From Narcine bancroftii (Eukaryota), in assembly GCF_036971445.1 (NCBI RefSeq), contig NC_091473.1, positions 210,986,001 through 211,050,000 of the forward strand: a stretch of DNA of 64,000 nt, given 5' to 3'. The notes under the pieces are model-generated. The model worked only from the letters and a program-made list of their open reading frames with translations. It had not been told where the DNA came from and did no database searches. The position numbers and the translations under genes were made by a program. Positions 9,537 through 63,553 of the stretch are shown here, piece by piece. Every line of letters starts with the position of its first letter. Position 1 is the stretch's first letter.

Positions 9537-11495
9537 ATGGGAGGTGTGAGTAGCAAGGGAAATGGTCCTAAGGAAGGACAGGACAATCAGATAACTAAGC
9601 AAAGTCCGTTAGGATTAATGCTATCTGATTGGGGTGCAGGGAGAACCCATGGGAAAGACAAACTGACCATGGTCAGGTATTGCTGTCTGGATTGGGTTAA
9701 AAGTCCGATAAAAGAGAGTTCGGTATATTGGCCAAAGCTCGGATCCGAGGATGACTGGATGTGTCAGGCATTGAACATCTGGCTCTATCAAAACCAAAGA
9801 GATAATATTGAGAGCAGGGAATATGCAGCCTGCTGGCTCAGTGGATCGGTTGATCAACTGGTTTTGAATGAAAAGGAATGTAAGGACAAGAAAGATGAGG
9901 AACCTTTTGTCCCTGAAACACAAGGATGGGATGTGTTACATTCCCTTCCTCCACCTTATGCTCCTCCTATGCCGGTTCCTATCTTTCCTCTCTCTCCTAT
10001 GCTCTACCCTTCTGCACCTTCCCATCCTCCCCCACAGCTAAAGAAAGGGGAAGAAAGTAGGGGTGGTATGATCACCTGTTCACAAAGTACTAGATTACCA
10101 CCTCAATTGACAAGAGAGGGAGGAGACTTTGATTCAAAACAGTGTGAGACCCTCTGGAAGGGAAGGGCAGAACCTTTTGATTGATTTCCTGGAGAGCAGG
10201 AATCTAGACATTATAAAGGAGAGGATAAGCCAGAAATTAACTGGATGAGACCTTTACGGGAAGTTCCCATGGGAGGGGGTCTCGGTTTTGTAAATGTGCC
10301 CTGACTAGTACGGAGGTGCGTAATTTTAAGAGAGAATGCCCAATAAACAGAAAGGAAAGGCTAAGATTTTGATGCAGGCAGTCAAGGAAGTCGTGGAGGG
10401 ACAGCAAGGAAAGGGTAGGGGCTGTGTGCCAGCTCCTGGACATTGGGTGGATCTCCGGGAGTGGGAGAGTAGAGACCAGAGCAGGGGCAAGGGTAGAGGG
10501 GAATTCCAGGGACGACGACTGTTCCTGGGACCTCGTGGTAATCCTGGTAGGAATTGGGAAACAGGAGCATTAGTTAGCTACTATTGTAAAATGAGGGACA
10601 TTTTAAGAGAGAATGCCCAATGCGAGCCAGGGAGACACGATCTTATGCACTGATGTGTTGGAATATAGGGGTTAATTAATCATAGAAAATATGTAGACTA
10701 TATGCTTATGTACTATTCAGTTTGTATACATGAATCCAGTACTTTGTAACAATTTAATATTTACCTCGTGATGAAAGGAAAGAGTAATGTAAGTAATGGG
10801 CAGCCATAGTATGTAGCAAAGTTGGCTGATTACAGTAGGTTTAGAATTGTCCGCTCCCAAAATACAAAAGAGAGGATATGTATGAAACAATTTAGTAGGA
10901 ATGTTAAGGCAAAAGGAGGTGTTGATTAGCACAAACAAAGAGACTGTCAGAAACAAAGAGAATGGAAGAGTAAGAAGCTAAGACAGAAGGAGGTGTTGAG
11001 TAGAACAGAGGAATATGGCCAGATGAGAACAAAAAATAATTAGAAATATCTTGGGTATGAATTGATTTCTGATCAAAACAACAGGATATTCTGACCTTGA
11101 GGATTAAGATGGGAGCTCTACACCCCAGAACTGCAGAGCAGGAAATTACGTGATAAATGTTATGCAAGAAATCTAGCAAAGAAAGCCAACTTTTGTTCTG
11201 TATGATAATGAAATCTAGCAAAGGAAGCCAACTTTTGTTCTGTATGATAAGGTTGAGCTATATAAACTGTAGAGACTGGACAGTAGAGGTCAGTCTTGGG
11301 GAATAACTCACTGTGCAGGTGACCTATGAACTAACGACTGAACCAGAGCTCTGTTAAGCTTTATTCTTATGCTGTGTAATATACTGATTCTCCTATCACT
11401 TCATTTAATGAACACGCTGGACTCAGACGACACATAGACTAAATTAAGGGTAGGGTAAAGCCAGAGTCCGACAGATGGAAGCAGATTATGAATAG
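9537..11495 (+). pseudogene. gag: ERV-A copy 2 gag (MA, PPPY/PSAP late domains; capsid largely deleted; interrupted by a solo LTR just before the amber stop)
   Basis: MGGVSS myristoylation-type start, LPPPY, PSAP; degenerate NC knuckle; TAG 11493-11495. Confidence 0.85.
10656..11473 (+). mobile_element. solo LTR of an unrelated family (818 bp) inserted in the gag end
   Basis: TGTTGGA...TCCGACA ends, 4-bp TSD GATG (10652-10655 / 11474-11477), TATAAA at about 11262, internal ~42-bp tandem duplication at 11168-11250. Confidence 0.88.
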
Positions 11496-11787
11496 GGGGT
11501 TTCACGGTTCTTAGTCAATACACACCGTGGGGCTGCACGGAGAACCATTGGTAAATTTAAGCATAGATCCCCACAGTGACAAGATGGTATTTTTAGTTGA
11601 TTCTGGGGCAGCCCGGTGTAGTATTTTACAACCACCCGAGGGTGTTAAGATAGAGGGGACCGTGATGATTTTGGGAGTAGGAGGAAGAGATTTTACGGTC
11701 CCTGTATTAAGGGATGTAAGAATACAAATGGGAGAAAAGATAATAACAGACGATATTTTACTAGTTCCCCAAGCTGGAGTTTGTTTG

Positions 11788-19846: not shown

Positions 19847-20689
19847 ACAGCACGTAGGCAGACAGGATTGCCTAATGCCAAACTCATCCAGGAGGCAGAA
19901 GAATGTAAGGGGAGGGTATTTCTATACTGAAATCAACTGTATAAAAGTTGGGTGAGCCCCAGTGTGTGTGTGTGTATTCCCAGGGTAAGGGGAAAGCACC
20001 CAACTTTGCATTGTTGAATAATAAATGTTCTTTGTTCTCAATTTTTGTCTTGAGCAAATTCTGTGAAGGTACTTCTGTTTCTCACAGGTTCTTTTTAAAA
20101 CAACTAGATTTATTAACGAAGCCAAACATACACATTCCAGACCTCATGTGGAAGCATCCATCTTGAAAATACCCAAGATGCAACAGTATTCCTAAAATGC
20201 AATATTCTCCAGATGTTACAAACTCTGACTAACTCCTCCTGGTGGTAGCCATCTATCATTACAAGCACAGATACATTCCATTAACCCCTCTCAGGGCTCC
20301 TCAGACTGTACCTCTCTGCATTCACCTCCATGTTTCATCCCCCATGTGTCCGACCATGCCATCACAATGTCCAGATGTTCTACACTTGGAAAGGACTGCG
20401 ATCAATGTCCTGGGAGATTTTTTTGCCAGTGGTGTTGTGGAGGGTGAGACGACTATGGCAGGTGAATGATATTATCTACAGGATGACAGCAGGAAGTAAA
20501 ATAGAGACAGAAGCAAAAGGTAGAAAAGGGGAAAATCAAAGTGGAAACAGAAAAAATCAATCCAATAGACAAAAAGTCACATTAAAAACAGTCACGTGTG
20601 ACCATAATTTATCTGAATGGCCAGAGCATTGCAGAAAAGGTTAATACTAGTAATCAGTCCAAAGGAGTGTGATGTTATAGCCATTACAT

Positions 20690-21129
20690 CCAACTGCACT
20701 GGGTAGGTCACGTCTCCAGAATGGAGGACCATCGCCTTCCCAAGATCATGTTATATGGCGAGCTCTCCACTGGCCACCGAGACAGAGGAGCACCAAAGAA
20801 GAGGTACAAGGACTGCCTAAAGAAATCTCGGTGCCTGCCACATTGACCACCGCCAGTGGGCTGATATCGCCTCAAACCGTGCATCTTGGCGCCTCACATT
20901 TCGGCGGGCAGCAACCTCCTTTGAAGAAGACCACAGAGCCCACCACACTGACAAAAGACAAAGGAGGTAAAACCCAACACCCAACCCCAACCAACCAATT
21001 TTCCCTTGCAACCGCTGCAACCGTGTCTGCCTGTCCCGCATCGGTCTTGTCAGCCACAAACGAGCCTGAAGCTGACGTGGATATTACCCCTCCATTAATC
21101 TTCGTCTGCGAACCCAAGCCAAAGAAGAA
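20690..21129 (+). mobile_element. RTE-clade LINE 3' fragment
   Basis: encodes W.GHVSRMEDHRLPKIMLYGEL...GAPKKRYKDCLK and a terminal C2H2-like motif; GAA-type tail; absent from the paralogous segment at about 58750. Confidence 0.8.
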
Positions 21130-21549
21130 CATACATATGGTTGCATGTTGAAGATAATTGGGAATTAAATATCCTGGGATCTTAGGTAATTTGGAAGGAT
21201 AGGCAGGAAGTTATGAGAGGTGGGGTAGCACTCTTGATTCAGGATGAGATCAGGGTGATAGTGAGAGATGATTTAGTGTCCATTGAGCAGAATGTTGAAT
21301 TGATCTGGGTAGAGATTAGACATAATAACGGGGCAAAAATCACAGGTGGGGCCATCTATAGGTCATCAAATAAATAGCATTACATTAGCAAAGGCACTGA
21401 TCAATGAGTTTCCATCAGGTACATGATGATAATGTCATCCAGAAGGTGCTTCAGAAGTTAAGAAAGAGGGCAGAATCTTCCCATCAGAGCCATTTTTATT
21501 AAATGTCCATCAAGGTACAGGTCAGACAGGATCTGTCCGTACAGGCCAT

Positions 21550-33018: not shown

Positions 33019-34441
33019 GTAGAGTTCGAGGGCTTCCAGGACCACATGCTACAATTATTCATAAGAGCCTTTTTAACCAATTGTTGTATCTCATCACAGG
33101 TAACTGGAGCAAGAGAAGCTGGCTCGATAGGAGCAGCAGTGGGAGCAGAAGGCACAGCTGGGCCAGGAGGACTCAACAGCTGGGGAAGATGTTCCCCTGC
33201 CTTCCTCTTATTAAGGGCATAAAGGACCGCAGTAAGTTTCCCATCAATATCACTTTGAGGTACGCCTAACTTTAACAAGGTTAGAAAAAGGTCCTTTCTT
33301 GTCGGTCCGTTATTACCAGCAGCCCCTCTCTTTTCATCCTGCTTGTCTGATTTAACCTGGGTTGCACGTGAGTGGATTTTACCTCCCAACTATAATTCTC
33401 AAAACCCAGATAAGGCGTGCACCGCCTCAGACAGAAGGTGCCCAATTAGCGGACTAGTTACGGACAGAATCAGGCCCCGTACAGTGGGTTGGGCAGAATG
33501 AACCAATCTGGTATGCATTCTGGCTGTGAACATCTCTTTGTCAGGGCTCCCCCCATGCCCTGCATACAAGGCAGAGGCGAGGGCCTGTTGACGAATTACT
33601 GCTATACCCTCCTCTGGGGTTCCTCAGTTGTTCAGCAAATGTAAATCCCAATCTACTGGTGATGGGTATACTTGTAACAGGGCATCCACTAGAGTGGCGA
33701 GTAAGTAATCCACCCCTCTCATTCTACTGCGTAGCTCAGCAGTGACCCGGATATCAGTAGTCAATGTTCCTAATCCCAACAATTCCTCAGGGGTTAAATA
33801 TACATGACCCCCTCCTTGTTCCCAAACACACAGGAGCCAGGCCACCAGAGTTTCTCCTGTCTTTTGCCTAAATTGATCTCCAATGGCAGCCAGCTCTTTT
33901 ATAGAGAAGTCACATATCGTTGATTGCTCCTGACCCCTGTTCCCACTTTGGCCCACAGGGCCCTCTACCCAGTGGACGGGATGTGGCTGAGGCTATCCTG
34001 TAGGAGGGGAGCATTGAGCATAAGCAGGGGTTCGGGTACCTTCCCCTGGGTCCACTTGGGAGGCCGGGGCATCTATCCTTTCATTCTCTACCATGACATC
34101 ACACCCTCTCCATCTCCGTCTGTTTGGGAAGTCCGCTGCCATACAGGGCGGACATGAACAGCGGGTGGAGAGGGGAGTATGTCAGGCAAATGCCGAGGGG
34201 TATCTGCATTATTACCATTGTCATCATACCAGATATTCTCGTCCCAATCATCAATTACATCAGGATCGTCGCCATTCCTTATCATGGCACGAATTCGATG
34301 TGGATTGGGTTCTACACCTTGCCTTTCCTTATCTGCACAGAGCTGCTGCTGGAGTTTAATATTATGGCAGATCGTTTGGACATGCTTATCCTCCCATTCT
34401 TTGGCTCAGTCCTGACTGGTGCAATCAATATCGCTCATCAT
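33019..34441 (-). pseudogene. gag: ERV-B gag, middle part (N-terminal part at 48420-48780)
   Basis: FSIKELAAIGDQFRQKTGETLVAWLLCVWEQGG and RKDLFLTLLKLGVPQSDIDGKLTAVL resemble ERV-L/S-type Gag; the reading frame continues across the ERV-A insertion. Confidence 0.75.
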
Positions 34442-35216
34442 TGTGAGAGATGAGAAAAACTGATATTGCAATATGAACATGAAGAAATGAAGAAAATAAA
34501 ATTGATACATAAATAAATGAATGAAGCCAGTACAAACAACATGAGACATGGATATTAGAAAGCAGGAAGCTGACACGGTCTGAGTAAGATAAGAATCTCC
34601 TAGAGCAGCAAGTTCACTGAATGAAGGAGAAAAGGACAGACAATTGAGAATAGAAGTAGAGTTAGTCTGAACGAGATAAGGGTCTCCAAGCCCCAGACAG
34701 AATTAGCAAGGCTTGCATAAATAATTAGAAAACCTTAGACTGTATTAACAAGTTATACATATATAATTAGTAAGCCATACACAGATTTTTCAAGTATGCA
34801 TAGTTAACTAGTAAACCCTAGACAAGATTAACGAACCCTGCATATGAAGGGACTGTAGCCCTGAGAGTCGGGAAGGTGTGAATGGGGACAAGGGCAAGGT
34901 TGTGAATAAGGACAATGGGAATAATGGCATGAGAAGACACTGGCAGGATACCCCCTGGTTCTCCAAGTATACTGAAACTGCACGTAGGCAGGAAGGATTG
35001 CCTCTGCCAAACCCATCCAGGGGGCAGAAGAATGTAAGGGGGAGGGTATTCTGATACTGAAATTTACTGTATAAAAGTTGGATGAGCCCCAGTGTATGTG
35101 TGTATTCCCAGGGTAAGGGGAAGCACCCAACTTTGCATTGTTGTTGTAATAAATGTTCTTTGTTCTCAATATTTGTCTCGAGAAATTTCTTTAAAGGTAC
35201 TTCTGTTTCTAACAAA

Positions 35217-35234
35217 TGGGGGCTCGTCCGGGAT
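35217..35234 (+). promoter_or_regulatory. primer binding site, tRNA-Pro
   Basis: TGGGGGCTCGTCCGGGAT. Confidence 0.95.
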
Positions 35235-35416
35235 CACACTCCCTCCACTGACAGAGTGCCCGACGATGAGAGTAGGTGCACCCCAGCTGATTCAGCTGGA
35301 CTCACGGACAACGGGTGGCTGGTCAGTGGAAGAAGCGAGTGATATCCGAGAAGAGGCATTGAGAACAAACGACGGAAGAATGTTAAGGAAGCGCGCTAGA
35401 GCATTGCTACTGGAAC

Positions 35417-35425
35417 CCGGTAAGA
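35417..35425 (+). promoter_or_regulatory. putative major splice donor
   Basis: CCG|GTAAGA just upstream of gag ATG, conserved in copies 2 and 4. Confidence 0.6.
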
Positions 35426-35447
35426 GGAATTTTACTTGCCTATCAGT

Positions 35448-37143
35448 ATGGGAAGTATGGGTAGCAAGGAAGAGAGTCCTGGTAAAGGATGTGAGAATCA
35501 GATAACTACGTACAGCCCGCTTGGGTTGATGTTATCTGAGTGGGGCACGGGAAGGACCCGTGGAAAGGACAAACTGACCATGGTCAGGTATTGTTGTAGG
35601 GACTGGGTTAAATACCCGATTAAAGGGAGCTCCGTGTACTGGCCAAAGCTCGGATCCGAGGATGACTGGATGTGTCAAGCTTTGAACATCTGGCTCTATC
35701 AAAACCAGAGAGATAACCTAGAAAGCAGGGAATATGCAGCCTGCTGGCTTAGGGGATCGTGTGATCAATTGGTTTTGAAAGAAAAAGAGTACAAGGAGAA
35801 GAGAGAGGAGGAACCTTTTGTCCCTGAACCACAAGGGTGGGATGTGCTACATTCCCTCCCTCCACCTTATGTTCCTCCTATGCCAGCTCCTATCTTTCCT
35901 CCCCCTCCTATAACCTAGCCTTCTGCACCTCCCCCACCACTAGAGAAGAGAGAAGAGAGCAGGAGTGGTATGATGACTCACTCACAAAGCACTCAATTAC
36001 CACCTCCGTTGACAGGAGAAAGAGGAAACTTAAATTTAGAACAGTGCGAGACTCTTCAAGAAGAAAGGGCAGAACCCCCCAATCCATCTTCCAGGGAGCA
36101 GGAACCCAGACCTAATAAGCCAGAAACCAACTGGATGCAACCCCTGCGGGAAGTTTCCGTAGGAGAGGGTCTCGGTTTCGTAAATGTGCCCCTGACCAGT
36201 ACTGAAGTGCGTAACTTTAAGAAAGAACTGACCTCCCTGATAGAAGATCCCCAGGGATGTGCCAAACAGTTAGACCAATTTTTGGGACCAAATCTATATA
36301 CTTGGGAGGAGTTAACATCTATCTTTAAGACTCTGTTTACTTTGGATGAGCGTGGAATGATCCGCAAGGCAGGGATTAGAGTCTGGGATAGGGATCACCA
36401 AGGGAGACCAGATGCGGTACCTGGAGAAACAAAATTCCCCTTGGCTAGACCTAATTGGGATAAAAATACCAATGATGGTCAGGTATTGATGGAAGAATAC
36501 AGGGTTAATTTGATAAGAGGAATCAAGGAATCTGTCCCAAAGGGACAGAATTTCAAGAAAGCCTTTGAGGTTCCCCAAGGTCCCGAGGAGACCCCCCTCT
36601 GCATTTCTGAATAGATTGCGCACGGCAATACAACAATTTGGGGGTCTCGACATAGAATCACCAGCAGGGGAACAATTGGTACTAACTGGTTTTGTTACCA
36701 ACTCAGCCCCAGACATTAGAAGAAAATTACAAAAAACGGAAAATTGGCATGAGCAAGGAATTACCCAGCTACTACAGATTGCACAGAAAGCATTTGTCCA
36801 GAGGTCTGAAGATAAGCAGAAAGGCAAGGCAAAAATTTTAATCCAAGCAGTCAGAGAGGTAGTAGATGAGCGACATGAAAAAGGTAGGGACTGTGTTCCA
36901 GCTCCTGTATGCGGTGAGGGGAGCCACGGGTGGGGAAGTGGGGACCCCAGTAGATGGAGGAGTAGAGGAGGATTCCGGGGACGACGACCCTTCCCGGGGC
37001 ACCTTAGAAACCCAGGTAGAGATTGGGAAACAGGAGCATTTGTCTGTTTCCATTGTAAAAAGGAAGGACACTTTAAAAAGGATTGCCCACTGCGAGCCAG
37101 GGACACACGATCCTATGTCCTGATGGAAGCAGATTATGAATAG
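35448..37143 (+). pseudogene. gag: ERV-A copy 3 gag (MA, late domain, CA, NC), with stop and frameshifts
   Basis: MGSMGS start, LPPPY, capsid LTSTEVRNFKKEL and QGPEETP, CFHCKKEGHFKKDC knuckle, TAG 37141-37143. Confidence 0.92.
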
Positions 37144-40100
37144 GGGGGTCACGGTTCTCAGTCAATACACACCTTGGGGCTGCACAGAGAACCATTAGTA
37201 AATTTATGCATAGGACCCCACAGTGACAACATGATATTTTTAGTTGATTCTGGGGCAGCCCAATCTAGTATTTTACACCAACCAAAGGGGGTTAGAATAG
37301 AAGGGACAATGATAGTTTCGGGGGTGGGAGGAAGAGACCACAGTCCCTGTATTAAGAGAGGTCAGAATCCAAATGGGAAATAAGGTAATAGTAGAGGATC
37401 TTCTACTACTTCCCCAAGCTGGAGTATGCTTATTAGGACGAGACTTACAGGACCAATTGGCTATCGGTACCAGACCATTAGAATCAGGCATCGGGGTTCA
37501 ATTTTATATTTTAAGCGAGGAAGATCGAGAACTTATAAATCCAAGAGTATGGGCAGAAAAAGGCAATAGAGGAGTTCTAGACATTCCTCTCCTACAAGTA
37601 ACTTTAAAAGACTCGCAACAAACAATTAGAAGAAAACAGTACCCAATTCCTATGGCTGGCCGCAAAGATCTGCAGCCCGTAATTGACCAGTTGCTTAAGG
37701 ATGGTATACTCGAACCATGTATGTCACCCTTTAATACCCCGATTTTACCTGTCCAGAAACCAGACGGTACCTATCGATTAGTACAGGACTTAAGGGAGTT
37801 GAACAAAATCATTCTCACCCGTCACCCTGTTGTACCTAATCCCTATACGATCATGAGTAAAATTGATCCCCATAATGCATGGTTCAGTGTCATTGATCTC
37901 AAAGACGCATTCTGGACCTGTCCATTGGCAACAGAAAGCAGAGACATGTTTGCCTTTGAATGGGAAAACCCTTTTACTGGACGTAAAAATCAATACCGGT
38001 GGACTGTCTTTCCTCAGGGCTTTACAGAATCTCCAAATTTATTCGGTCAGGTCCTAGAACAGATACTAGATGAGGCTCCTCGGAGAGACAATTGTCAGCT
38101 AATACAATACGTTGACGACTTGTTAATTACTGGAAGAACTTACGAATTGGCTAAAGAATTTACTGTTGCACTTTTAAATTTTTTAGAGAAATAAGGTCTT
38201 AGAGTCAGCAAATCCAAACTACAATTTGTACAATCGGAGGTTAAATACTTAGGACATCTAGTGAGTCAGGGAAGCAGGAAAATTAGTCCAGAGAGAATAG
38301 CTGGTATTCTGCAGATTCCCCCTCCCAAAAATGCCAAGGAACTTAGGAAATTCCTTGGCTTAGTGGGATTCTGTAGAATCTGGATGGAAAATTATTCTAG
38401 CCGTCAAATTTCTTTATGATAAACTCACGATAATAGGGACCGAAGCTCTTGTCTGGACAGATGATGAGATTAAAGATTTTAACTTCGTTAAACATAGCCT
38501 TATGCGTGCCCCAGTCTTGGCACTACCCGACTTAAATAAGCCTTTTGATTTATATACTAATGCCAAAGGAGGTGTAGCCACCGGAGTATTAACCCAGGAC
38601 AGGACAGGCTATAGACAACCAGTGGCTTTTCTATCAAAGGTTTTAGACCCCGTTTGTCGTGGCTGGCCAGAATGTGTACAAGCCATCGCAGCCACTGCTG
38701 TTTTAGTTGAGGAAGCACGAAAAATTACTTTCGGCGCCCCTATGATAGTTCACACCCCTCACACAGTCCACAATATTCTCTTACAGCGTGCTGGGAGATG
38801 GCTCACGGACTCTAGAATTTTAAAATATGAAACGATCCTAATGGATAGGGATGATTTGACCTTGCTCATGACTAAAACCCTCAACCCAGCATCCTTCCTC
38901 GTTGCTCCAAATTTGGACAATTCCACAAATGAATTAGAACATGGGTGCTTAGAAGTTATAGACCTACAAACCAAAATTAGAGAAGATCTAACTGATGTCC
39001 CTTTAAAAGAAGGTGAAAGATGGTTTATTGATGGCTCTTCACGATGTATTGCAGGAACTCGCTATAGTGGGTATAGTGTAGTGGATGAGAAGCAAGGACT
39101 GGTGATTGAAGCCGGTCGCCTCCCTGATCATTGGTCAGCACAATCCTGAGAATTATACGCCCTATGTAGAGCACTCCACGGCTTAGAGAGCAAAATAGGC
39201 ACTATCTACACTGACTCTAAGTCCGCTTTTGGTGTAGTCCACACCTTTGGGAAGATCTGGAAAGAACGAGAAATGATAACTGGTAAAGGACAGAAGTTAG
39301 CCCATGAGCACTTAATTGTCCAATCCCTAGATGCTCTAACTCTCCCGACTGAAATAGCCGTAGTACATGTCCGAGGACATCAAAATGGTGACAGTCCTGA
39401 AGCTCACGGCAACAGACAGGCTGATGCAGCTGCCAAACAGGCTGCACTTGCTGAAAAGATTCACATCCACCTAGTACTGCTCACACCACTAGAGATTAAA
39501 AAAAACCCATCTTTTCACGGGAAGAGGAGGTCTCAATGAAAGATCAGGAATTTCGCCAAACTGCCGACGGGTTGTGGTGGATGGCAGACTGACGTCAAGT
39601 CCTTAACAAAGCATTAGCCCGCCAAGTGGTAGATCAGCTACACCAACAGACACATTGGGGAACCCAGGCGCTTGTTGATGCCTTTCAACGATCCTTACAC
39701 TGCTCCGGTAATATACAATAGCTAAACTCACTACTCGCGGTTGTCCGATCTGTCAGAGAATCAATAAGAAATCTATGCGCCCTGTAATGCCTGGCGGTCG
39801 CGACATCGCAGTTCGCCCGTTTCAACGCATACAAGTTGATTTTACAGAATTTCCTAAAATTGGTATTTACAAATACCTTCTGGTGATGGTAGATCATTTT
39901 ACACGATGGGTTGAAGCTTTCCCCACCCCGAATGATCGAGCTATCACTGTGATCAGAATACTTATTGAATCTGTGATTCCAAGATATGGTCTGATTCAAA
40001 CCATTGATTCAGACCGAGGTACACATTTTACCTCTCAGGTTCTCCAGGGTGTCTGCAAGAAACTGGGAATAGACTGGCAACTACATACCCCATGGCACCC

Positions 40101-41279
40101 CCAAAGTTCAGGTTGAGTTGAAAGAATGAATCAAACTTTGAATAATCAATTCACTCGACTTCATGAAGAGACTGGCCTCTCCTGGATTAAATCTTTACCA
40201 TTAGCCCTGCTTAGAATTCGCACAGCCCCTCGTAAAGACCTTGCAGTCTCACCATACGAAATGAAGTTTGGACTTCCATTTATGGGATTCCACACTGATA
40301 CCCCTATCCCTGAGGCTAATGATCAATACATTTCAAAATTTCTACAGGGTCTTTCTACTTCTATACACGACCTGAAACATAAGGGATTATTAGCCCAAAC
40401 TCCACCCCTGGAGTTTCCTATCCATTCTATTAAACCTGGTGATTGGGTTTGTTAGAAATAGAAGTACCTTTAAAGAAATTGCTCGAGACAAAAATTGAGA
40501 ACAAAGAACATTTATTATACAACAATGCAAAGTTGGGTGCTTCCCCTTACCCTGGGAATTCACACATACACTGGGGCTCACCTAACTTTTATACAGTTTA
40601 TCTCAGTATAGGAATAACCCCCCCCCCCCTTACATTCTTCTGCCTCCTGCTGGAGAGGTTTGGCATTAGGCAATCCTGCCTACGTGCTGTTTCTGTGCAC
40701 TTGGTGGACCAGGGGGTATCCTGTCGGTGTCCCTTCATGTTATTGACCTTATTCACACCTTCCTGATTCTCGGAGCTACAGTCTCTTGATATGCAGAGTT
40801 CGCTAATCCTGTCTAGGGTTAACTAATTTAATATGTATAACTTTGTAAATCTATGTAAGGTTAACTAATTAAATATGTAGAACTTGGAACTTCTGTCTAG
40901 AGCTAGGAGACCCTTATCTCATCCAGACTACCTCAACTTCCTACACTCTATTGTTCCTTACCGCTCCTTATCTTATTCATATGGTGGGCTCATTGATCTT
41001 GTCACAAAGACTAGAAGATTCTTATCTTAAATGTGCTGACTCTGCTTTCCTGGATCCTAATTCCCAAGCTCATCCTGTTTGTACTGGTTACATTCATTTA
41101 CTAATGTATGAATTTTAGTTTCCTTCATGTTCATAATTTTAGATCAGTTTTCTCATCTCTCACAATCCTCACTTTTCTTTTAGATCAGTAATACTGATCT
41201 CTCACCATGATCAGTGTTACTGATCTTAGGGTTACTGGTCTCAGTGTTACTGATCCCTCCCCATTCTCACTTTTCTTTT

Positions 41280-42420
41280 AGATCAGTATGTTGTAAAGTG
41301 CAAGGTGTTGTTTTTCCCAGCTGGTCAATAACTGAATTGCAGTCTCTGTGTCGTTGGATAGAGTTAGGGAAACATACTTTTTTTGGGGTATAGTGTTCTG
41401 ACGAGGGGTTCGATGAATTAAAAACTGCAGCCAAGTCTTTAGGCAGGGGAGCACCATAAAGGTCAGAGTAGCAAGTCCAGCTGCTAAAAGGTTGTGAGTA
41501 TCAGGCTCCAGTTTTTAGTAAAGAGTCTAGTCCATCCCACATCAGTCCGAGGTTGCCAAGTCTGAACATGGGCATGGGCAGATTCTCGTCGAAGTCCTGA
41601 AGCAATGTCTTTAACTGCCTGACTGTTGTAAGCATTGTCCTGAACAAGTCTTTGAGAAACGCTGCCTTCAGCAGCGAACGAGTAGTCGAGAGTCAGGCGG
41701 TTCCATTGAATTGTGGCTCGTATCTGCGGTTCCTCTTCAGCCCCGACCCCAGGGCCACCGATCTCCGTTCGATGATGATGTTGAAGGCTGTTTGGAGTCT
41801 GATTAAACGATTGAAATGCCAAGCAGCTTTAGGGTACTGTAGCAGCTCACGTCGTTTGTAACTGGTGCTCCCCTTCACGGGGTGGTGTTTGTCATTTTGA
41901 ATGTATGAGAGACCCAAAGGATGTTTGAGAAGAGACCAAGCTGGGGAGGATTGTTTCTTATCATTTAACCTGTGTGTTGCAGCTTGTCTGCTAACATTAG
42001 CATGAGTATCATTGAACTTGTGAGTTGCAGCCTGTCTGTGTACATTAGCATATGTATTAACTCTCTATCTCTGTGACATGTACAATCCTGACTACCATTC
42101 TGTCTGTCTTTGTCCCACCATGTCCTTTGTGCTATCACTTTAAAACTCCTGTCTTTAACACCTGTGTAGGCTAAGTTACAAATTAGATGTACTCCACTAA
42201 AGCTGTTCAGTTCCCCTGGTCCATGTTGGAATCCCTTGTTAACCCATACCCCACTATGACTATACATTAAATCTATGCCCTGTCTACATTCTAAAGGAAA
42301 ATAATTGTCACCTCTGCTGCCCCTATCCCAGGAGGACTTAATACATTGTGAGTAATTAAGTGATGTCCCAGAAATGGAGAAGCAACAATTAAACAATACA
42401 ATAAATGGTAAAAACAACAT
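41280..42420 (-). pseudogene. env: ERV-A copy 4 env-derived ORF, frameshifted
   Basis: ORFs 41965-42420, 41693-41917 and 41484-41822 collinear with 46415-47554; ATG overlaps the pol-tail TAA at 42420. Confidence 0.8.
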
Positions 42421-42687
42421 TACGGCACTTTTTCACGGCGTAGTGTAACTTTCAGGTCAGAAGGAAGAGGGACTGCACGCCAGGTGGAGGGTAGATTATC
42501 AATGATGTTATTCTGTGGTTCAGTACCTGGTTTAATTCGTTGGATGTGGCTCCAGCCTTTTTCTTTCGTTCGCATGGCAGTGTCTGTAATCAAAAGTACA
42601 CAATAGGGGCCATCCCAGACAGGTTTCTGTTGGTGATGTTGGCATGCTTTTACATATAACCAATCACCAGATTTAATAAAATGAATA

Positions 42688-44062
42688 ACAATCTGACTAT
42701 TCTTTGTGTTAGTGTAAAAATTGTAAAATGAAACACAAACCATATTTCCATGGGTTTTGAATATATTAGACCTTATTCAAATGCAGTTGGAGCTGATTGT
42801 CTGTATGAGGCAACCAACCTGCAATTTGTTAGAGTGAGTACATAACAGATATTGCAGCACAAGAGCCCCTGCGAGAGAACTTGAAACATATTCAACCTTT
42901 AGTTCTGCCTTAAGTAAAATGCCTTGTGCCACAGCTCACAGGAGCTGGCCTTATTTAAAACAGTCTGTAAAACAGGCACCAAAAAAAGTTAAAAGATGTT
43001 CTTATGAAGATTGCACACACAATCATTTAAGTACAGGCTAGTTTCTATTATATTCCACTTAAAAGTTCTGCTGCATGAATCCTGGAGCTTGTGGAGTCAT
43101 TATTGAATCAAGAAATATTGGTGCCATGCCAATCTCATTCTAACATGCCAATTTCTCCAGTCCTTAAGTCAAGATGTACTGAATAGCATCTGGTACAAGA
43201 TCTGTGAGTTCTTAATGATATTATTATTCTTATGCACCCAATTGTTCTGAACTATGCCACCAATTTAAATCATATTCCACCTATTGCAGTACTCACACAG
43301 CACCATAGACCAGTTCGCAGGTTTATTTCTCCATTAAACTAAATCCAGTCGCGCAGGGTTTACCTCCGTGATTATTTACAATGTAACTTCCGCACTACTG
43401 GATTTAAATATAAACCTGATGAATGGGGGGGGTGGGGGGGGGAGGAAAGTTATCATGAATTAAATAACAGTGGCAATACAGAGAAATTGTGCTGAGGCAT
43501 TAATTTCACTCCGGAGAAAAATGCACCAGAGAAATGAATGATTAAACTTATGGGAATCCCCAGAGGTATCTTTATTCTCCAGAGGTGGGTGATCTTTAAA
43601 CTCACGGACCTTGACTGCTGAATGTGTAGAAGAAATGTACTAAATCTGTTGATAGGGCTCCATTCCTCTAACTGCAAGACAAGAGCCTGAAGCCTCAATT
43701 TCAAGTGCCACAGTGCACTTAAAGGGACATGCACACTCCCCCTTCAACTGGCTGATCCAGCCACTTTACACATCAGATCCTTTCTTTATCTTACATACAC
43801 TTAAAATAAGACGTGTAGAGCTCACCCTATTAGCGCAAACATTTCTCCCTGCGAATGTTATAACATTGCTCAGTTCTCAGGTACTCCCTATGCAAAATCA
43901 CATTTGAATACAATTTATTTCATAAATTGGAATTAACTGGTAGTTAAATTTGCTCATTCTACAGTATTGATAAACGATCATTTATGACATTTAAATTTTA
44001 GCATGAATTTTAATCAATATTGGTCAGTGACTGAAGTGGGAAGTCGTAATTTATGAAATTAT
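42688..44062. other. non-viral AT-rich insert inside provirus copy 4 (candidate transduced cellular sequence)
   Basis: no visible homology to any ERV-A copy in the window, no long ORF, no TSD, joins gag (44063) directly to the integrase tail (42687). Confidence 0.7.
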
Positions 44063-45242
44063 CTCTGGTCTCTACTCTCCCACTCCCGGCACTTCTCCCA
44101 ACATTCAGGAGCTGGCACACAGTCCCTGCCTTTTTCATGTTACTCATCTACTATTCCTTTAACTGCTTGCATCAAAATGTTAGCCTTTGCTTTCTGCTTA
44201 TCCTCAGATGTCTGGACAAATGCTTTTTGTGTGATCTGTAGAAGCTGGGTTATTCCCTGCTCATGCCAATTTTCTGTCTTTTGTAATTTTCTTCTAATGT
44301 CTGGGGCTGAGTTGGTAACAAAACCTGTTAGTACCAATTGTTCCCCTGCTGGGGATTCTATGTCGAGACCCCCATATTGTATATATATTTGGTCCCAAAA
44401 ATTGGTCTAATTGTTTGGCACATCCCTGGGGATCTTCTATCAGGGAGGTCAGTTCTTTCTTAAAGTTACACACTTCATTACTGGTCAGGGGCACATTTAC
44501 AAAACTGAGACCCTCTCCCACGGGAACTTCCCGCAGTGGTCTCATCCAGTTGGTTTCTGGCTTATTAGGTCTGGGTTCCTGCTCCCTGGGAAATGAATCA
44601 AAGGGTTCTGCCCTTTCTTCCTGAAGAGTCTCACACTGTTCTGAATTAAAGTTACCTCTCTCTCCTGTCAACAGAGGTGGTAATCGAGTGCTTTGTGAAC
44701 GAGTCTTCATACCACTCCTATTCTCTTCGCTTTTCTCTAGCTGTGGGGGAGGAGGGGAAGGTGCAGAAGGGTAGGGCATGGGAGGGGGAGGAAAGATAGG
44801 AGCCGGCATAGGAGGAACATAAGGTGGAGGGAGGGAATGTAAGCACATCCCACCCTTGTGGTTCAGGGACAAAAGGTTCCTCCTCTCTCTTTTCCTTGTA
44901 CTCTTTTTCTTTCAAAACCAATTGATCTCACGATCCCCTGAGCCAGCAGGCTGCATATTCCCTGCTCTCTAGGTTATCTCTCTGGTTTTGATAGAGCCAG
45001 ATGTTCAAAGCTTGACACATCCAGTCATCCTCGGATCCGAGCTTTGGCCAGTACACGGAGCTCCCTTTAATCGGGCATTTAACCCAGTCCCTACAACAAT
45101 ACCTGACCATGGTCAGTTTGTCCTTTCCACGGGTCCTTTTCGTGCCCCACTCAGATAACATCAACCCAGGCGGGCTGTACGTAGTTATCTGATTCTCACA
45201 TCCTTTACCAGGACTCTCTTCCTTGCTACCCACACTTCCCAT
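44063..45242 (-). pseudogene. gag: ERV-A copy 4 gag, ~330-bp capsid deletion, NC missing
   Basis: ORFs 44928-45593, 44294-44872 and 44140-44337 match copy 3 gag. Confidence 0.88.
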
Positions 45243-46414
45243 ACTGATAGGCAAATTCCTCTTACCGAGTTCCAGTAGCAATGCTCTAGCGTGCTTCCTT
45301 CCGTCGTTTGTTCTCAATGCCTCTTCTCGGATATCACTCGCTTCTTCCACTGACCAGCCACCCATCGTCTGTGAGTCCAGCTGAATCAGCTGGGGTGCAC
45401 CTACTCTCGTCGTCGGGCACTCTGTCAGTGGAGGGAGTGTGATCCCGGACGATCCCCCATTTGTTAGAAATAGAAGTACCTTTAAAGAAATTGCTCGAGA
45501 CAAAAATTGAGAACAAAGAACATTTATTATACAACAATGCAAAGTTGGGTGCTTCCCCTTACCCTGGGAATTCACACATACACTGGGGCTCACCCAATTT
45601 TTATACAGTTTATCTCAGTATAGGAATAACCCCCCCCCCTTACATTCTTCTGCCTCCTGCTGGAGAGGTTTGGCATTAGGCAATCCTGCCTACGTGCTGT
45701 TTCTGTGCACTTGGTGGACCAGGGGGTATCCTGTCGGTGTCCCTTCATGTTATTGTCCTTATTCACACCTTCCTGATTCTCGGAGCTACAGTCTCTTGAT
45801 ATGCAGAGTTCGCTAATCCTGTCTAGGGTTAATTAATTTAATATGTATAACTTTGTAAATCTATGTAAGGTTAACTAATTAGATATGTAGAACTTGGTAT
45901 TTCTGTCTAGGGCTAGGAGACCCTTATCTCATCCAGACTACCTCAACTTCCTACACTCTATTGTTCCTTACCGCTCCTTATCTTATTCATATGGTGGGCT
46001 CATTGATCTTGTCACAAAGACTAGAAGATTCTTATTTAAAATGTGCTGACTCTGCTTTCCTGCATCCTAATTCCCAAGCTCATCCTGTTTGTACTGGTTA
46101 CATTCATTTACTAATGTATGAATTTTAGTTTCCTTCATGTTCATAATTTTAGATCAGTTTTCTCATCTCTCACAGGTTTATGTCAAAGCATGGCAAGATA
46201 ACCAACTGAAACCTGCCTGGGATGGTCCCTACTGTGTATTTTTGATTTCAGATGCTGCCGTGCGATCGAGAGAAAAAGGCTGGACCCACATCCAACGGAT
46301 TAAACCAGCTACCGAACCACAGGATCACGACAGTCAAACTCAACCCTCCACCTGGCGTGCAGTGACTCATCCTTCTGACCTGAAACTTACACTACGCCGT
46401 GAAAAAGTGCCGTA

Positions 46415-47554
46415 ATGTTGTTTTTATTCTTTATTGTATTGTTTAATTGTTGCTTCTCCATTTCTGGGACATCACTTAATTACTCGCAATCTATTAAGTT
46501 CTCCTGGAATAGGGGCAGCAGAGGTCACAATTTTTTTCCTTTAGAGTTTAGACAAGGTGCAGATTTAGTTTTTAGCCATAGTGAGATATGCTTTAATAAG
46601 GGATTCCAATATGGACCAGGGGACCAGAACAGCTGTAGCGACCTTCACTTAACTTCCCACATAGATATTAAAGGTATGAGTTCTAAACCTGTAGCACAAA
46701 GAGAGCGATATGACAAAGACACACTGAATGTTAGTAACCAATGCACCTGTCAGCGAGAGAGAGAGAAGACGTTTGCTAATGTACACAGACAGGCTTTGAC
46801 TCACAACTTCAATTATACTCATACTGTAACACACATCTCTAATCGTAATGCACAATCCTCCCCAGACTGGTCTTTTCTCAAACATCCTTTGGGTTCCTCC
46901 AGCATTCAGAATCCTTACCATTGCATCGTTAAGGGAAGTTCCAGTTATAAACGGCAACAGCGGCTACAGATCGCTAACGCTCCTTGCCATCTGAAACATC
47001 TAATCAGACTCCATGCAGCCTTGGGCATCATTATCCAACAGAACACAATGGCCCTGAGGTTACGGGCTGAAGATAAACAACATTTACCAAGCACACTTCA
47101 ACAACACCGCCTGCCTCTCGATTACAGCTTCGCTGCTGAAGGCAGCACTTGTGAAAGACTCCTTAAAGACACTACTCACAACGGGCAGGCGGTTAAGAAC
47201 ACTTCTTCAGGACGTCGAAAAAGTTCCCATGCCCAGGTACATACTTTGCAACCTCGGTCCTCTGTGGGATGGACTGGACTTTTCACCGGTTACTGGAGTC
47301 TGATACTCGCAACCCTTTTAACAGCTGGACTCATTATTCTCACCATCTTACTGCTTCCCTACATACAGACTTGTGCACATCGTTTAACTCATCAACCCTT
47401 TCGTCAGAACACTTTCACCCAAAGGATGTACGGTTCCCAACATCTTTCTGAGGACATGGAGACTGCTATCCATTTATCGACCAGCTGGGAAAACCACCAC
47501 GTTCCACTTTATCACATCAGTAATACTGATCTAAAAGAAAACGGAGGATTGTGA
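46415..47554 (+). CDS. env: intact 379-aa env-derived membrane protein ORF (shortened SU, degenerate TM)
   Basis: uninterrupted ORF; signal-peptide-like MLFLFFIVLFNCCFSISG, LIRLHAALGII heptad region, ISD-like QQHRLPLDYSFAAEGSTC, TM LILATLLTAGLIILTILLL. Confidence 0.65.
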   Translation: MLFLFFIVLFNCCFSISGTSLNYSQSIKFSWNRGSRGHNFFPLEFRQGADLVFSHSEICFNKGFQYGPGDQNSCSDLHLTSHIDIKGMSSKPVAQRERYDKDTLNVSNQCTCQREREKTFANVHRQALTHNFNYTHTVTHISNRNAQSSPDWSFLKHPLGSSSIQNPYHCIVKGSSSYKRQQRLQIANAPCHLKHLIRLHAALGIIIQQNTMALRLRAEDKQHLPSTLQQHRLPLDYSFAAEGSTCERLLKDTTHNGQAVKNTSSGRRKSSHAQVHTLQPRSSVGWTGLFTGYWSLILATLLTAGLIILTILLLPYIQTCAHRLTHQPFRQNTFTQRMYGSQHLSEDMETAIHLSTSWENHHVPLYHISNTDLKENGGL

Positions 47555-47632
47555 GAGACCAGTAACACTGAGATCAGTAACACTGATCATTGTGTGAGAT
47601 CAGTATTACTGATCTAAAAGAAAAGTGAGGAT
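47516..47632 (+). repeat. duplicated PPT flanking palindromic GATCAGT-nnn-ACTGATC repeats
   Basis: PPT1 47533-47549 followed by TGTGAGAGA, palindromes 47572-47588 and 47598-47614, PPT2 47616-47632; similar array at 41165-41290. Confidence 0.85.
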
Positions 47633-48419
47633 TGTGAGAGATGAGAAAAACTGATATTGCAATATGAACATGAAGAAATGAAGAAAATAAAATTGATACA
47701 TAAGTAAATGAATGAAGCCAGTACAAACAACATGAGACATGGATATTAGAAGGCAGGAAGCTGACACTGTCTGAGTAAGATAAGAATCTCCTAGCCCTTC
47801 AGACAGAAGCAGCAAGTTCACTGAATGAAGGAGATAAGGACAGACAATTGAGAATAGAAGTAGAGTTAGTCTGAACGAGATAAGGGTCGCCAAGCCCCAG
47901 ATAGAATTAGCATGGCTTGCATAAATAATTAGAAAACCTTAGACTGTATTAGCAAGTTATACATATATAATTAGTAAGCCATACACAGATTTTTCAAGTA
48001 TGCAATAGTTAACTAGTAAACCCTAGACAAGATTAACGAACCCTGCATATGAAGGGACTGTAGCCCTGAGAGTCGGGAAGGTGTGAATGGGGACAAGGGC
48101 AAGGTTGTGAATAAGGACAATGGGAATAATGGCATGAGAAGACACCGACAGGATACCCCCTGGTTCTCCAAGTATACTGAAACTGCACGTAGGCAGGAAG
48201 GATTGCCTCTGCCAAACCCATCCAGGGGGCAGAAGAATGTAAGGGGGAGGGTATTCTGATACTGAAATTTACTGTATAAAAGTTGGGTGAGTCCCAGTGT
48301 ATGTGTGTATTCCCAGGGTAAGGGGAAGCACCCAACTTTGCATTGTTGTTTTAATAAATGTTCTTTGTTCTCAATATTTGTCTCGAGCAATTTCTTTAAA
48401 GGTACTTTTGTTTTTAACA

Positions 48420-50078: not shown

Positions 50079-50607
50079 ACTTTAACATTGTCTGAGCTGG
50101 GAAACCACAAGGAACTCACGAGAATCCGCAGTCGAGACGAGTAAACCGGTGCTGGGAACTGTGCTCCCGTCTACTGTTTGTGCTGAGAAGGTGCAGAGGG
50201 GAACATTGTGTCAGAGAGACTGTGTTCAAGGGGCGGTGTCTTTGACTGGAGTCACTGTGTTTGTGGATCCGACCTTAGCGCCGGATTTGCCGCCCCCTCG
50301 TGTGAAAGATGACAAGATTTCCCTATCACCGGATAGCGCCGGCCCCAGCTCAGTGCTGAAGTGGGAATGAACGACAAAGTTTTGGTTGGTTTTAATATTT
50401 CTATCGGAAAGCAGGAAACATGTCAGTGATTGGGGGAGAGAACGCGGTCGGTGCTGCAATGAAACGGGTTTAAACGGGAAGTGTCTCATTGAATTTGGAT
50501 CAAAATCCCTTTACAACAAACATTCGGTGCTCGGGACGGTCCAGGATGAGTCCGGGACTCCGGGGTTTCCGATGTTAATAGGAATGGGAGAATTTTGGAG
50601 GGGACAG

Positions 50608-50614
50608 AAACACA
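50608..50614 (+). promoter_or_regulatory. H1 box (AC box)
   Basis: AAACACA followed by a GC-rich box, about 145 nt upstream of the H1 ATG. Confidence 0.7.
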
Positions 50615-50757
50615 GAGAGGCGGTAGTGGCGGGAGCTGACAGCAGGATGTCTCCACCCCGTCCGCTCGCTGCCTTTAAGTTGCTCTGTGCCGCCGCCTCC
50701 CGCTTCATTTCTCACTCAGTTCTGAAACTCGGAGAGAATTGGTGTAGAGTCGCTAAC

Positions 50758-51375
50758 ATGACTGAGATCGCAGCGGCCGAAGCGGCTCCTCCTGCTGCTC
50801 CCGGCGCCCAAACCAAGGCTCCCAAGAAGAAAAAGGCGCCCGCTCGGCCCAAGCCAGCCGGTCCCAAGCTGGGCGATCAGATCGACAAGATTGTGGCGAA
50901 TTGCCGTGAGCGCGGGGGGATGTCCTACTTCGCCATAAAGAAGGCTCTGGCCGACGGCGGCGTCGATGTGCACAAGTCCGCCTCGCACATCAAGACGAGC
51001 ATCAAGAGAAAATTGGACAGCGGCCTCCTGGTTCAATGCAAAGGCTCGGGCTTGTCGGGTCACTTCAAGGCCGGGAAGAAAGAAAGGACAGTGACATTGG
51101 CAAAGAAAGCGAAGAAACCAGCGGCCACGGCGTCGAAGTCCAGGAAGTCGGTGGCAAAGAAATCTTCGGCCAAAAGACCAGTCATCAAGAAATCTCCCTC
51201 CAAGAAACCCGCGGCTAAAAAGACGGCGGCCAAGAAGCCAATGGCCAAGAAGGCGACCCCGAAGAAGTTCCAGAGCCCCCCGAAGGCCAAAGTCACCAAG
51301 GTGAAAGCGACCAAAAAGGTTGTAAAATCCAGGGCCCGGCCGAAATCTAAACCCAAGGCAGCGGCCAAGAAGTGA
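50758..51375 (+). CDS. H1: histone H1 (205 aa), replication-dependent
   Basis: winged-helix globular domain (GMSYFAIKKAL...VQCKGSGLSGHFK), K/A/P-rich tail with SPxK/TPKK motifs, intronless, 3' stem-loop. Confidence 0.95.
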   Translation: MTEIAAAEAAPPAAPGAQTKAPKKKKAPARPKPAGPKLGDQIDKIVANCRERGGMSYFAIKKALADGGVDVHKSASHIKTSIKRKLDSGLLVQCKGSGLSGHFKAGKKERTVTLAKKAKKPAATASKSRKSVAKKSSAKRPVIKKSPSKKPAAKKTAAKKPMAKKATPKKFQSPPKAKVTKVKATKKVVKSRARPKSKPKAAAKK

Positions 51376-61999: not shown

Positions 62000-62680
62000 C
62001 TGACTGTCCACCTTGAACCTCTCTCCCTGTGTGAACTCGCTGGTGTCCCCACAGACCGTAAGGCTGATTGAACTCCTTCCTGAGCAGGGAGCAGGGGAAT
62101 GATTTCTCTCAGTGCAAATACACTTGTGGCCCTGCAGAGAGGTGCAGTGGACCAATCCCTTTCTGAGAGAGAACAGTTTCTCTCAGTGAACCCGCTGGTG
62201 TGCCTGAGGCCGGATTGCGGAGAGAAGTCATTCTCCCACAGGGACCATGTGAATGGTTTCTCCCCAGTGTAAAATCTGTGGTGCCCCTGCATAGCGGAGG
62301 ACTGAAAGAAACCATTCCCACACAGGGAGCAGGTGAACAGTTTTTCCCCAGCGTGAATTCGCCAGTGGTCGTGCAAAAAAGTCAAATGGGCAAATTCCTT
62401 TCTGCACTTTCTTCAGGAGAACTGTTTCTTCCCCCATGTTAACCCCCTGATGTACCTGTAGGACAGATTGCTGAGAGAACCCTTTCCCACCCAGGGAACA
62501 GGTGAACTGTTTCTCCCCAGTCCAACCCGCTGATCTACCCCAAGGCTGGAGGGCTGAGTGAACCCTTTTCTGCACAAGGAGCAGGTGAACAGTTTTTCTC
62601 CAATGTGAATTTTCCAGTGGCTTTGCCAAGAAGTCAAATGGGAAAATCCTTTTCCACACATCCCACAAGGAATATGGTTT
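62000..62680 (-). pseudogene. decayed C2H2 finger repeats downstream of the ZNF stop
   Basis: GEKLFTCSLC, TGEKPFT remnants in shifting frames (ORFs 62228-62668, 61981-62385). Confidence 0.75.
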
Positions 62681-63553
62681 CTACCCAGTGTGATCCCGCT
62701 GGTGTACCCACAGGAAAGATTGCCGAGAGAACCCCTTTCCACACAGGATGCAGGTGAATGGTTTCTCCCCAGCATGAACACGCTGGTGTGCTTGCAGGCA
62801 GGAGGGCCAAGAGAACCCTTTCCCACACAGGGAACAGTCGAACGGTTTCTCCCTAGTGTGAACCCGTTGGTGTACTTGCAGGCCAAATTGCCGGGTGAAT
62901 CTCTTACCACACAGAGGACAGGTGAACAGTTTCTCCCTGGTGTGAACCTGCTGGTGTGCCTGCAGACCGGAATTCCGAGAGAACCGCTTCCCACACAGGG
63001 AGCAAGTGAATGGTTTCTCCCCAGTGTGAACCTGCTTGTGTATCCGCAGGTTGGAGGGCTGAGAGAATCCCTTCCCACACAGGGAGCAGGTGAATGGTTT
63101 CTCCCCAGTGTGAACACTCTGGTGCCTCAGCAGGTGCGAGGATCGAGTGAACTCCTTCCCGCACACACAGCATTTAAAGGATCTCTCCCTGGAGTGATTG
63201 TTCTGGTGCTGTAGGAGGCTGGAGGATTGGGTGAACCTTTTCCCACACACGCGGCAGGTGAACGGACTCTCACCAGGGGGAACACACCCATGCTCCTTCA
63301 GGTCCTTGGAGGTTTGAAAGCTCTTCCCACAGTCAGAGCAGGGGAATGGGCTCCCCCTACTGGGGAAACACTGGTGTTGCAGAAGTGCCTCCGAGCTGGC
63401 GAATCCCTCCCCACACTCGGAACAGGGGAATGGCCTCTCCCCAGTGTGAGTGCAGGGATGTGCTTCCAGCAAGTCCACAGAAAGCCCCGCCTCACCGCAT
63501 GCTTCATTTTGGAGTGTTTTATCTGCTGTATCACTGGGCACCTGACACTCCAT
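62681..63553 (-). CDS. tandem C2H2 zinc-finger protein (7 canonical plus 2 degenerate fingers), no KRAB visible; may be a truncated gene or pseudogene
   Basis: CxxC...HxxxH with TGEKPF linkers; polypyrimidine-CAG acceptor at 63697-63695; stop TAG sits where linker GAG (E) is expected. Confidence 0.75.
   Translation of the reverse strand: MECQVPSDTADKTLQNEACGEAGLSVDLLEAHPCTHTGERPFPCSECGEGFASSEALLQHQCFPSRGSPFPCSDCGKSFQTSKDLKEHGCVPPGESPFTCRVCGKRFTQSSSLLQHQNNHSRERSFKCCVCGKEFTRSSHLLRHQSVHTGEKPFTCSLCGKGFSQPSNLRIHKQVHTGEKPFTCSLCGKRFSRNSGLQAHQQVHTREKLFTCPLCGKRFTRQFGLQVHQRVHTREKPFDCSLCGKGFSWPSCLQAHQRVHAGEKPFTCILCGKGFSRQSFLWVHQRDHTG

Follow-up and report, generated by a model that had tools for sequence, protein, structure and literature searches.

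A multicopy, non-autonomous endogenous retrovirus of Narcine bancroftii carrying non-coding host DNA from upstream of ISL1 and from beside a WASF gene

Background

A provirus in which most of the genes between gag and the end of pol have given way to unrelated DNA raises the questions where this DNA came from, how it was acquired and whether it serves the element. Such a provirus is found in the window, i.e. the whole stretch of 64,000 nucleotides of the Narcine bancroftii genome analysed here, in which an endogenous retrovirus (ERV) contains an insert of 1,375 bp. A preliminary description, made from the letters of the window, had read this insert as non-coding cellular RNA carried by a transducing retrovirus. 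We consider it rather likely that the element is a non-autonomous class I ERV with about 1,100 copies which contains DNA from upstream of ISL1 and, nested in it, a piece from beside a WASF gene, that template switching by reverse transcriptase (RT) brought both pieces in, that the enzymes of a relative mobilized the element, and that the cargo was probably just carried along.

Architecture of the provirus

The window holds a nest of related proviruses: the element in question (inner provirus; 40450-46174, minus strand) sits within the integrase tail of a related plus-strand provirus with broken gag-pol (outer provirus; 34440-48419), which serves as a yardstick for the sequence missing from the inner one. 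Just as described before, the LTRs of the inner provirus (5' LTR, 45462-46174; 3' LTR, 40450-41164; both minus strand) are nearly identical (98.2% over 717 bp) and bounded by a perfect target site duplication (TSD; GGTT at 46175-46178 and GGTT at 40446-40449), and both the polypurine tract (PPT; 41165-41182, minus strand) and the primer binding site (PBS; 45442-45459, minus strand) are retained, the latter with a single mismatch to that of the outer provirus; we take it to be of the tRNA-Pro type. The leader and a broken gag (44063-45441, minus strand), which contains stops and an internal deletion of about 330 bp, end just before the nucleocapsid (NC) knuckle, at 44063 and about 95 nt short of the CCHC position of the outer provirus. 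At its far side the insert joins the C-terminal tail of integrase (42420-42687, minus strand; MLVIN_C, E=7e-9), and about 3.47 kb of virus is missing compared with the outer provirus, close to the 3.4 kb estimated previously. In terms of Pfam matches, the insert is flanked by Gag_p30 on one side and MLVIN_C on the other, and the inner element is devoid of the zf-CCHC and RVT_1 regions that are present in the outer one. The env region, which had been listed among the retained parts, is only a degenerate remnant (41183-42419, minus strand), 82% identical to the neighbouring proviruses and free of Pfam matches; the inner open reading frames (ORFs) and a 383-aa ORF at the env position of the outer provirus had no Pfam match either, and the 383-aa ORF had no meaningful PDB match. 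To judge from its sequence, the element is a class I (gamma/epsilon-like) ERV, with a Gag_p30 domain, an MLV-type integrase C-terminus, a presumed Pro-type PBS and a 4-bp TSD, and it is to be classed as non-autonomous, having kept LTRs, PBS and PPT while its coding capacity for RT and integrase is gone.

The insert is AT-rich (37.6% GC compared with 48.5% and 43.3% in the flanks) and poor in ORFs (the longest comprises 96 aa), and neither poly-A nor a TSD is present at its edges, all in keeping with the preliminary description. On the minus strand, it starts with a 2-nt filler at the junction with gag (44061-44062), which was found in 96 of 98 tallied junction contexts, the two contexts without it being the donor itself. 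The filler is followed by segment A1 (43412-44060), segment B (43068-43411) and segment A2 (42688-43067), with a length of 1,029 bp for A and 344 bp for B in the window copy. Elsewhere in the window, a second PPT and LTR-start motif precedes the 3' LTR by about 100 bp (41241-41288), and there are an ORF which we take to be histone H1-like (50371-51375) and an array with a period of 84 bp, presumably a zinc-finger array (62070-63449).

Family size and insertion hallmarks

Within the window the insert is unique, as had been noted, but not so in the genome: with up to two mismatches allowed, a 24-nt pattern across the junction of gag and insert matched 1,094 places, compared with none for the control. 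Searching with the insert yielded 1,401 candidates at first look, and the 40 that were scored showed 93-100% identity. All of the 30 best loci fetched have the gag junction in common, and 28 of them also have the integrase junction of the window copy, whereas in two an additional deletion extends as far as the end of pol. A pattern for 3' ends other than that of the window copy had 222 matches; among the 100 matches listed, 83 were of the pol-end type, 16 of a longer type and one was different. When 26 long loci were examined, both ends were readable in ten elements, nine of which had matching 4-bp TSDs with eight different sequences; the LTRs of the sole exception are 76% identical. Across copies, the LTRs of a pair are 94.6-100% identical.

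Parts of the insert are also contained in public contigs under four organism labels; the gag junction is spanned by contigs of several runs, the integrase junction by one contig. In runs X10 and X11 (organisms C and D) the chimeric element occurs at low depth, which may reflect low copy number or cross-contamination; a 21-nt contig match in run X10 was discarded, as it is about at chance level. Two of four runs that we guess to be RNA contain the ERV-borne form, with little or no cover of donor-only flanks, which speaks neither for nor against expression.

Individual copies have diversified further. One sublineage (L070-L072, L074) carries an extra non-gag segment of about 800 bp and a piece of pol inside gag, matching window positions 10614-11497. 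Copies of the pol-end type, the youngest subfamily, contain variable tandem repeats at the env position, with units of about 59 and 40 bp (e.g. L084:5744-6156, proviral sense). In copy L076 (G000:C9:57.06 Mb), A2 switches back into a long stretch of pol, and this copy is thus a recombinant with a pol-bearing relative. A LINE-like element, presumably of the RTE type, is inserted in several copies (L070, L073, L074) and is also seen at 20688-21138 of the window.

Donor of segment A upstream of ISL1

The donors were reached through segments retained only in old, longer copies of the element; patterns at the insert ends designed against viral flanks had matched only ERV variants. For A, 40 loci were fetched from the 100 listed among 106 pattern matches, including plausible ones with two mismatches. 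One locus (C8:76.757 Mb) matches positions 3-651 and 1250-1914 of the long insert at 92-93%, A1 deriving from G000:C8:76,757,545-76,758,213 and A2 from G000:C8:76,758,256-76,758,932. The two matching parts are separated by 42 bp, proviral flanks are absent, and no ERV sequence was found in the 10-kb stretch around the locus. This donor is the only real match to the uninterrupted middle of A, a second match being unrelated, and its left flank is single-copy, barring a local 147-bp duplicate; the right flank is covered without differences by a 151-nt contig from a run of another organism label. The two copies of the 147-bp duplicate (L268:3400-3552 and 5722-5875, G000:C8) are 87% identical, and the first of them ends at the 5' capture breakpoint of A.

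The neighbouring gene encodes two LIM domains and a homeodomain, with ISL1 as the top PDB match (E=2.7e-42); we take it to be ISL1 rather than ISL2 on account of this match and of its sequence. Its ATG is located at C8:76,765,295, which places A at a distance of 7.75-6.4 kb upstream, on the strand of the gene and within a CpG-rich, repeat-poor domain (observed/expected CpG ratio 0.82-0.88). As far as sequence comparison can tell, segment A is host DNA from a single-copy, non-proviral donor upstream of ISL1.

Donor of segment B behind a WASF gene

Segment B, which is nested in A in place of 42 bp of A, has a more intricate origin. The 254-bp segment which longer copies possess and the window copy has lost from B matches an old dispersed family at 71-78% and a single non-proviral locus at 98%. 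The old family is a decayed ERV with remnants of RT, connection, RNase H and integrase, and B is an antisense piece of this family from which the RT core has been deleted; in the window, 43079-43261 (plus strand) is a decayed N-terminal RT fragment (tblastn, E=8e-8; MMLV RT, E=1.2e-6; no Pfam match). Copies of the old family match B at only 69-78%, whereas the non-proviral locus (C17:142,288,684-980) is 96-97% identical to the long copies of the chimeric element. It begins exactly at the A/B junction and retains 11 bp also found in relatives from the old family; a 24-nt pattern spanning these 11 bp matched this donor only. The locus lies on the sense strand 891 nt past the stop codon of a WAVE-family gene, which we take to be WASF2, and ahead of the first AATAAA, i.e. 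in a predicted 3' untranslated region (UTR).

At this donor, which corresponds to the 5' part of B, 297 of about 610 bp survive. The remainder of B was absent within about 100 kb on either side and was recovered neither by the search with the old family nor by patterns, and no non-ERV copy of the right half of B was found in the assembly. The capture junction at the donor (L161:4785, C17:142,288,684) is no more than about 3 nt away from the edge of the old ERV fossil and abuts a duplicated unit of about 100 bp, and the other end adjoins a GC-rich minisatellite. The unit that is duplicated in the WASF 3' region has another copy, with 86% identity, at G000:C1:487,823,257 (L292), and an intronless 7tm_1 receptor gene, presumably of the GPR3/6/12 type, is convergent with the WASF gene (L180:4017-5084, minus strand). 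An origin of B from a spliced exon was rejected: the GT of a potential splice donor is still present where A meets B, the acceptor would be GAG, and homology to the old ERV runs across the right break of B.

The two donors change the reading of the insert in several respects. The postulated non-ERV donor loci exist, and many ERV copies show an identical 5' junction together with different TSDs, but the insert is a mosaic of two donors rather than the product of one. It is cellular in that both donors are host loci, except that the RT fragment in B is itself of retroviral descent. Likewise, about three quarters of the insert represent DNA upstream of ISL1 and not the 3' UTR or intron of any identified gene, whereas about one quarter is indeed a piece of a predicted 3' UTR, albeit one that is an old ERV pol fossil. 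The insert is neither a one-off repair patch nor a single known transposon.

Junctions and deletion history

Apart from the filler at the gag/A junction, the A/B junction is blunt, and the B/A junction cannot be judged because the corresponding donor flank was not found. At the A/RT junction the chimera shows microhomology of 8 nt, and the parental sequences share 10 nt, the probability of 8 nt or more by chance being 1.7e-4; clear microhomology is thus present at one of four host junctions only. Downstream of A, two pieces of pol of about 20 nt each, from the start of RT and from the integrase core, precede the integrase tail. Since A is joined to the start of RT, only NC and protease should have given way to it at first, and pol disappeared later. 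Exact and near-exact patterns, which can miss such forms, detected neither a provirus with A only nor an intermediate with A and a long pol.

Older copies exceed the window copy in length by stretches of 254 bp, 154 bp and about 150 bp, and their insert measures about 1.95 kb; a pattern for the longest form matched ten places, all of them ERV-borne. The window copy is therefore a deletion derivative, in which the 254 bp are gone from B and A2 lacks an internal 154 bp as well as about 150 bp at its 3' end. Divergence from donor A amounts to 4.6-5.3% for seven long copies and to 7.5-9.5% for 18 young copies including the window copy. In a tree of 45 A1 sequences, all rows kept, the donor is part of a polytomy with the oldest copies, and 24 young sequences form one clade (100/99, with bootstrap values not fully settled); the topology does not require the ERV copies to group together to the exclusion of the donor. 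Tree and divergence together indicate that capture shortly preceded the first burst and that spread continued until LTR pairs were identical.

Acquisition and role of the host DNA

The sequence of events that we propose would have started with a template switch by which segment A (1.39 kb) took the place of NC and protease, leaving gag joined, via A, to the start of RT as seen at the junction. The templates of both switches would have been co-packaged host RNAs, in the case of A possibly an upstream or read-through transcript. Segment B (about 0.6 kb) would then have replaced 42 bp within A, as its nested position implies, probably in a separate second event, and nearly all of pol was then lost in two jumps that left the two pieces of about 20 nt. 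The form with the 1.95-kb insert went through a first burst (LTR pairs about 95-97% identical), and successive deletions, which removed 254, 154 and about 150 bp, resulted in the 1,375-bp form and a sister form, both belonging to a younger clade (LTR pairs 96-100% identical). The absence of pol from an element with many TSD-bounded copies suggests dependence on a helper, and the decay of CpGs and large insert losses in amplified sublineages point to a passenger role. The microhomology at the A/RT junction, the lack of poly-A and TSDs at the insert edges and the orientation of A and B, both of which run in the same direction as their host genes and as the viral RNA, favour template switching; the non-genic site of A, 6.4-7.75 kb upstream of the ATG of ISL1, counts against capture from RNA, and the missing intermediates and the presence of microhomology at just one host junction count against our model. 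Not accounted for by it is the position of the left end of B, which coincides with the edge of the fossil to within about 3 nt and lies about 5 nt from the base of a predicted stem.

The main competing explanation is that A, B or both are patches that entered a resident provirus during templated repair by microhomology-mediated end joining, with retrotransposition only afterwards. Recombination is routine in retroviral virions (see also Tan et al. 2016), and the acquisition of two pieces from unlinked donors on different contigs, one nested in the other, by one and the same provirus is easier to conceive there; the same 3' junction moreover shows additional jumps of the RT type in pol, and both donor pieces are oriented like their genes and like the viral RNA. 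Yet A is non-genic DNA, microhomology, a 2-nt filler and a blunt junction are also compatible with end joining, and capture of genomic and retrotransposon DNA during repair has been reported (PMC4516963). On balance, we regard such patches as unlikely. For B alone, the direction of transfer might be the reverse, in which case an early chimeric copy would have supplied the C17 piece and the locus from which B really came would have been lost. The exact start of this piece at the A/B junction, its end after 297 bp at a minisatellite and its rearranged flanks would fit such an event, but the piece keeps 11 ancestral bp that no ERV copy matches, and a paste beginning exactly at the junction would be equally coincidental, which leaves a reversed transfer quite unlikely in our opinion.

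A further rival explanation is that the cargo contributed to the success of the element, with A acting as an internal enhancer or the stem in B as an RNA export or packaging element that drove amplification. There is a precedent in SERV-K/MER11, where a recombinant CTE drove amplification according to the excerpted account (PMC11379458); the domain next to a developmental gene from which A stems is CpG-rich and poor in repeats, and the commonest deletion among the fetched loci, that of 254 bp, preserves the 18-bp stem, although one sublineage has lost an arm of it. However, four large deletions of the insert have each spread, namely those of long-insert positions ~80-270 (14 contexts), ~690-950 (74 contexts), ~820-1610 (15 contexts, with the 3' arm of the stem gone) and ~1400-1560 (25 contexts), as counted among the fetched loci, which are a non-random sample; positions ~1-80, 270-450 and 1610-1800 are included in no catalogued deletion. 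In the window copy, 13 of 44 donor CpG positions are mutated compared with 7.9% at non-CpG positions, and the observed/expected CpG ratio has dropped from 0.75-0.86 to 0.27. The branch of donor A (2.9-3.8%) is not shorter than that of donor B (1.8%) and gives no sign of constraint, in a comparison of low power, and in Rfam the provirus had just two matches, both below threshold, and the donor regions had none that reached the gathering score. A functional cargo is therefore very unlikely in our view, and we think it just as improbable that a cis-regulatory segment of the ISL1 domain, planted at about 1,100 sites, acted as an enhancer within the element or on its neighbours and helped it to outgrow its relatives; if this were true, a host developmental enhancer and not a viral LTR would have been dispersed genome-wide.

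Two features of the insert that had suggested regulation turned out to be younger than the capture. GCACTT and AAGTGC are indeed present at 43703-43720, but the donor is without these candidate miRNA seed sites, both of which arose after capture through a 22-bp deletion and CpG decay, and the argument built on them fails. A hairpin (43338-43403, minus strand; z=-3.96 for the region 43310-43425) was compacted by the 254-bp deletion between inverted-repeat arms in B, and since it spans the deletion junction it was rejected as a pre-miRNA. The earlier suggestion that the element moves regulatory sequence around the genome thus holds as a description of the copying, but a regulatory function of the insert is unsupported, because seed sites and compact hairpin postdate the capture, many CpGs of the donor have mutated and amplified sublineages have dispensed with large portions of it. 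The host DNA probably travels as a passenger.

The element provides a traceable case of a retrovirus that captured non-coding host DNA twice and amplified it about a thousandfold, in which donors, junctions and a series of deletions can be read. It illustrates that host DNA, even from the domain of a developmental gene, can make up the "unrelated" middle parts of non-autonomous ERVs. Some 1,100 dated copies of a formerly CpG-rich host segment represent a natural experiment on methylation and the rate of decay, and they also bear on whether transduced host regulatory DNA ever stays active.

Comparison with known systems

In acutely transforming transducing retroviruses a captured protein-coding gene is expressed from the provirus, often as a fusion with gag. 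The element analysed here resembles them, as had been proposed, in carrying host DNA, but it contains no captured coding gene; with a longest ORF of 96 aa and no overlap of either donor piece with coding exons that we found, a transducing virus of the oncogene type can be dismissed. A plain recombinant between two ERVs was likewise rejected, as B is 69-78% identical to the old family but 96-97% to the host locus, and as three quarters of the insert are not ERV sequence. The internal region of mouse ETn is unrelated to MusD and of unknown origin. In extracts of a survey covering ETn (which depends on MusD), IAP 1Delta1 and VL30 (PMC6466679), these are non-coding or deleted elements which have kept their cis signals and use helper proteins, as we suppose for the present element; no host donor is named in these extracts, whereas both donors were found here.

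Host sequence within an ERV lineage of several copies is known from the KIT-ligand and nectin3 captures of crocodilians, which, according to the excerpts of the report, concern protein-coding mRNAs in nine and six copies with ORFs under purifying selection (PMC4299795), in contrast to the ORF-less insert described here. HERV-K/FAM8A1, in the short mention within PMC5131818, is a further host sequence in an endogenous retrovirus with several copies, FAM8A1 being a protein-coding mRNA. With recKoRV, the recombinant of KoRV and PhER, the element shares a class I provirus disabled by old retroelement sequence and remobilized, and microhomologies at some breakpoints; in the excerpted description PhER is a transcribed retroelement family (PMC6112702), whereas B is a small antisense fossil from one host locus and the larger part of the insert is unique host DNA.

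The closest parallel is offered by LTR-mediated retrocopies, in which, in the parts of Tan et al. 2016 (PMC5131818) considered here, a host fragment without poly-A tail or TSD lies between discontinuous halves of one LTR element. These include maize Bs1 and the multi-gene mouse "Super" and show microsimilarity or filler at the switch points and several donors per chimera; in the present element, there are 8-10 nt of microhomology at A/RT, a 2-nt filler at gag/A and neither at A/B, with B/A unreadable. Secondary retroposition with shared switch points, also described there, has its counterpart in the 1,094 matches and distinct TSDs reported above. The retrocopies in these parts of the article are exonic mRNA pieces with few copies (one to five for Bs1), whereas the present element mainly carries upstream DNA from outside genes, together with an ERV fossil that was embedded in the host, and its deletions form a readable series across about 1,100 copies. 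As to the exonic mRNA origin, B lies in a predicted WASF 3' UTR and A upstream of ISL1, and no splice junction was seen. In listings of the openly available literature, neither the element nor a capture of ISL1-flanking DNA was found to be described. The element is a variant of known LTR-mediated retroposition, unusual in its non-coding cargo, its copy number and its traceable donors.
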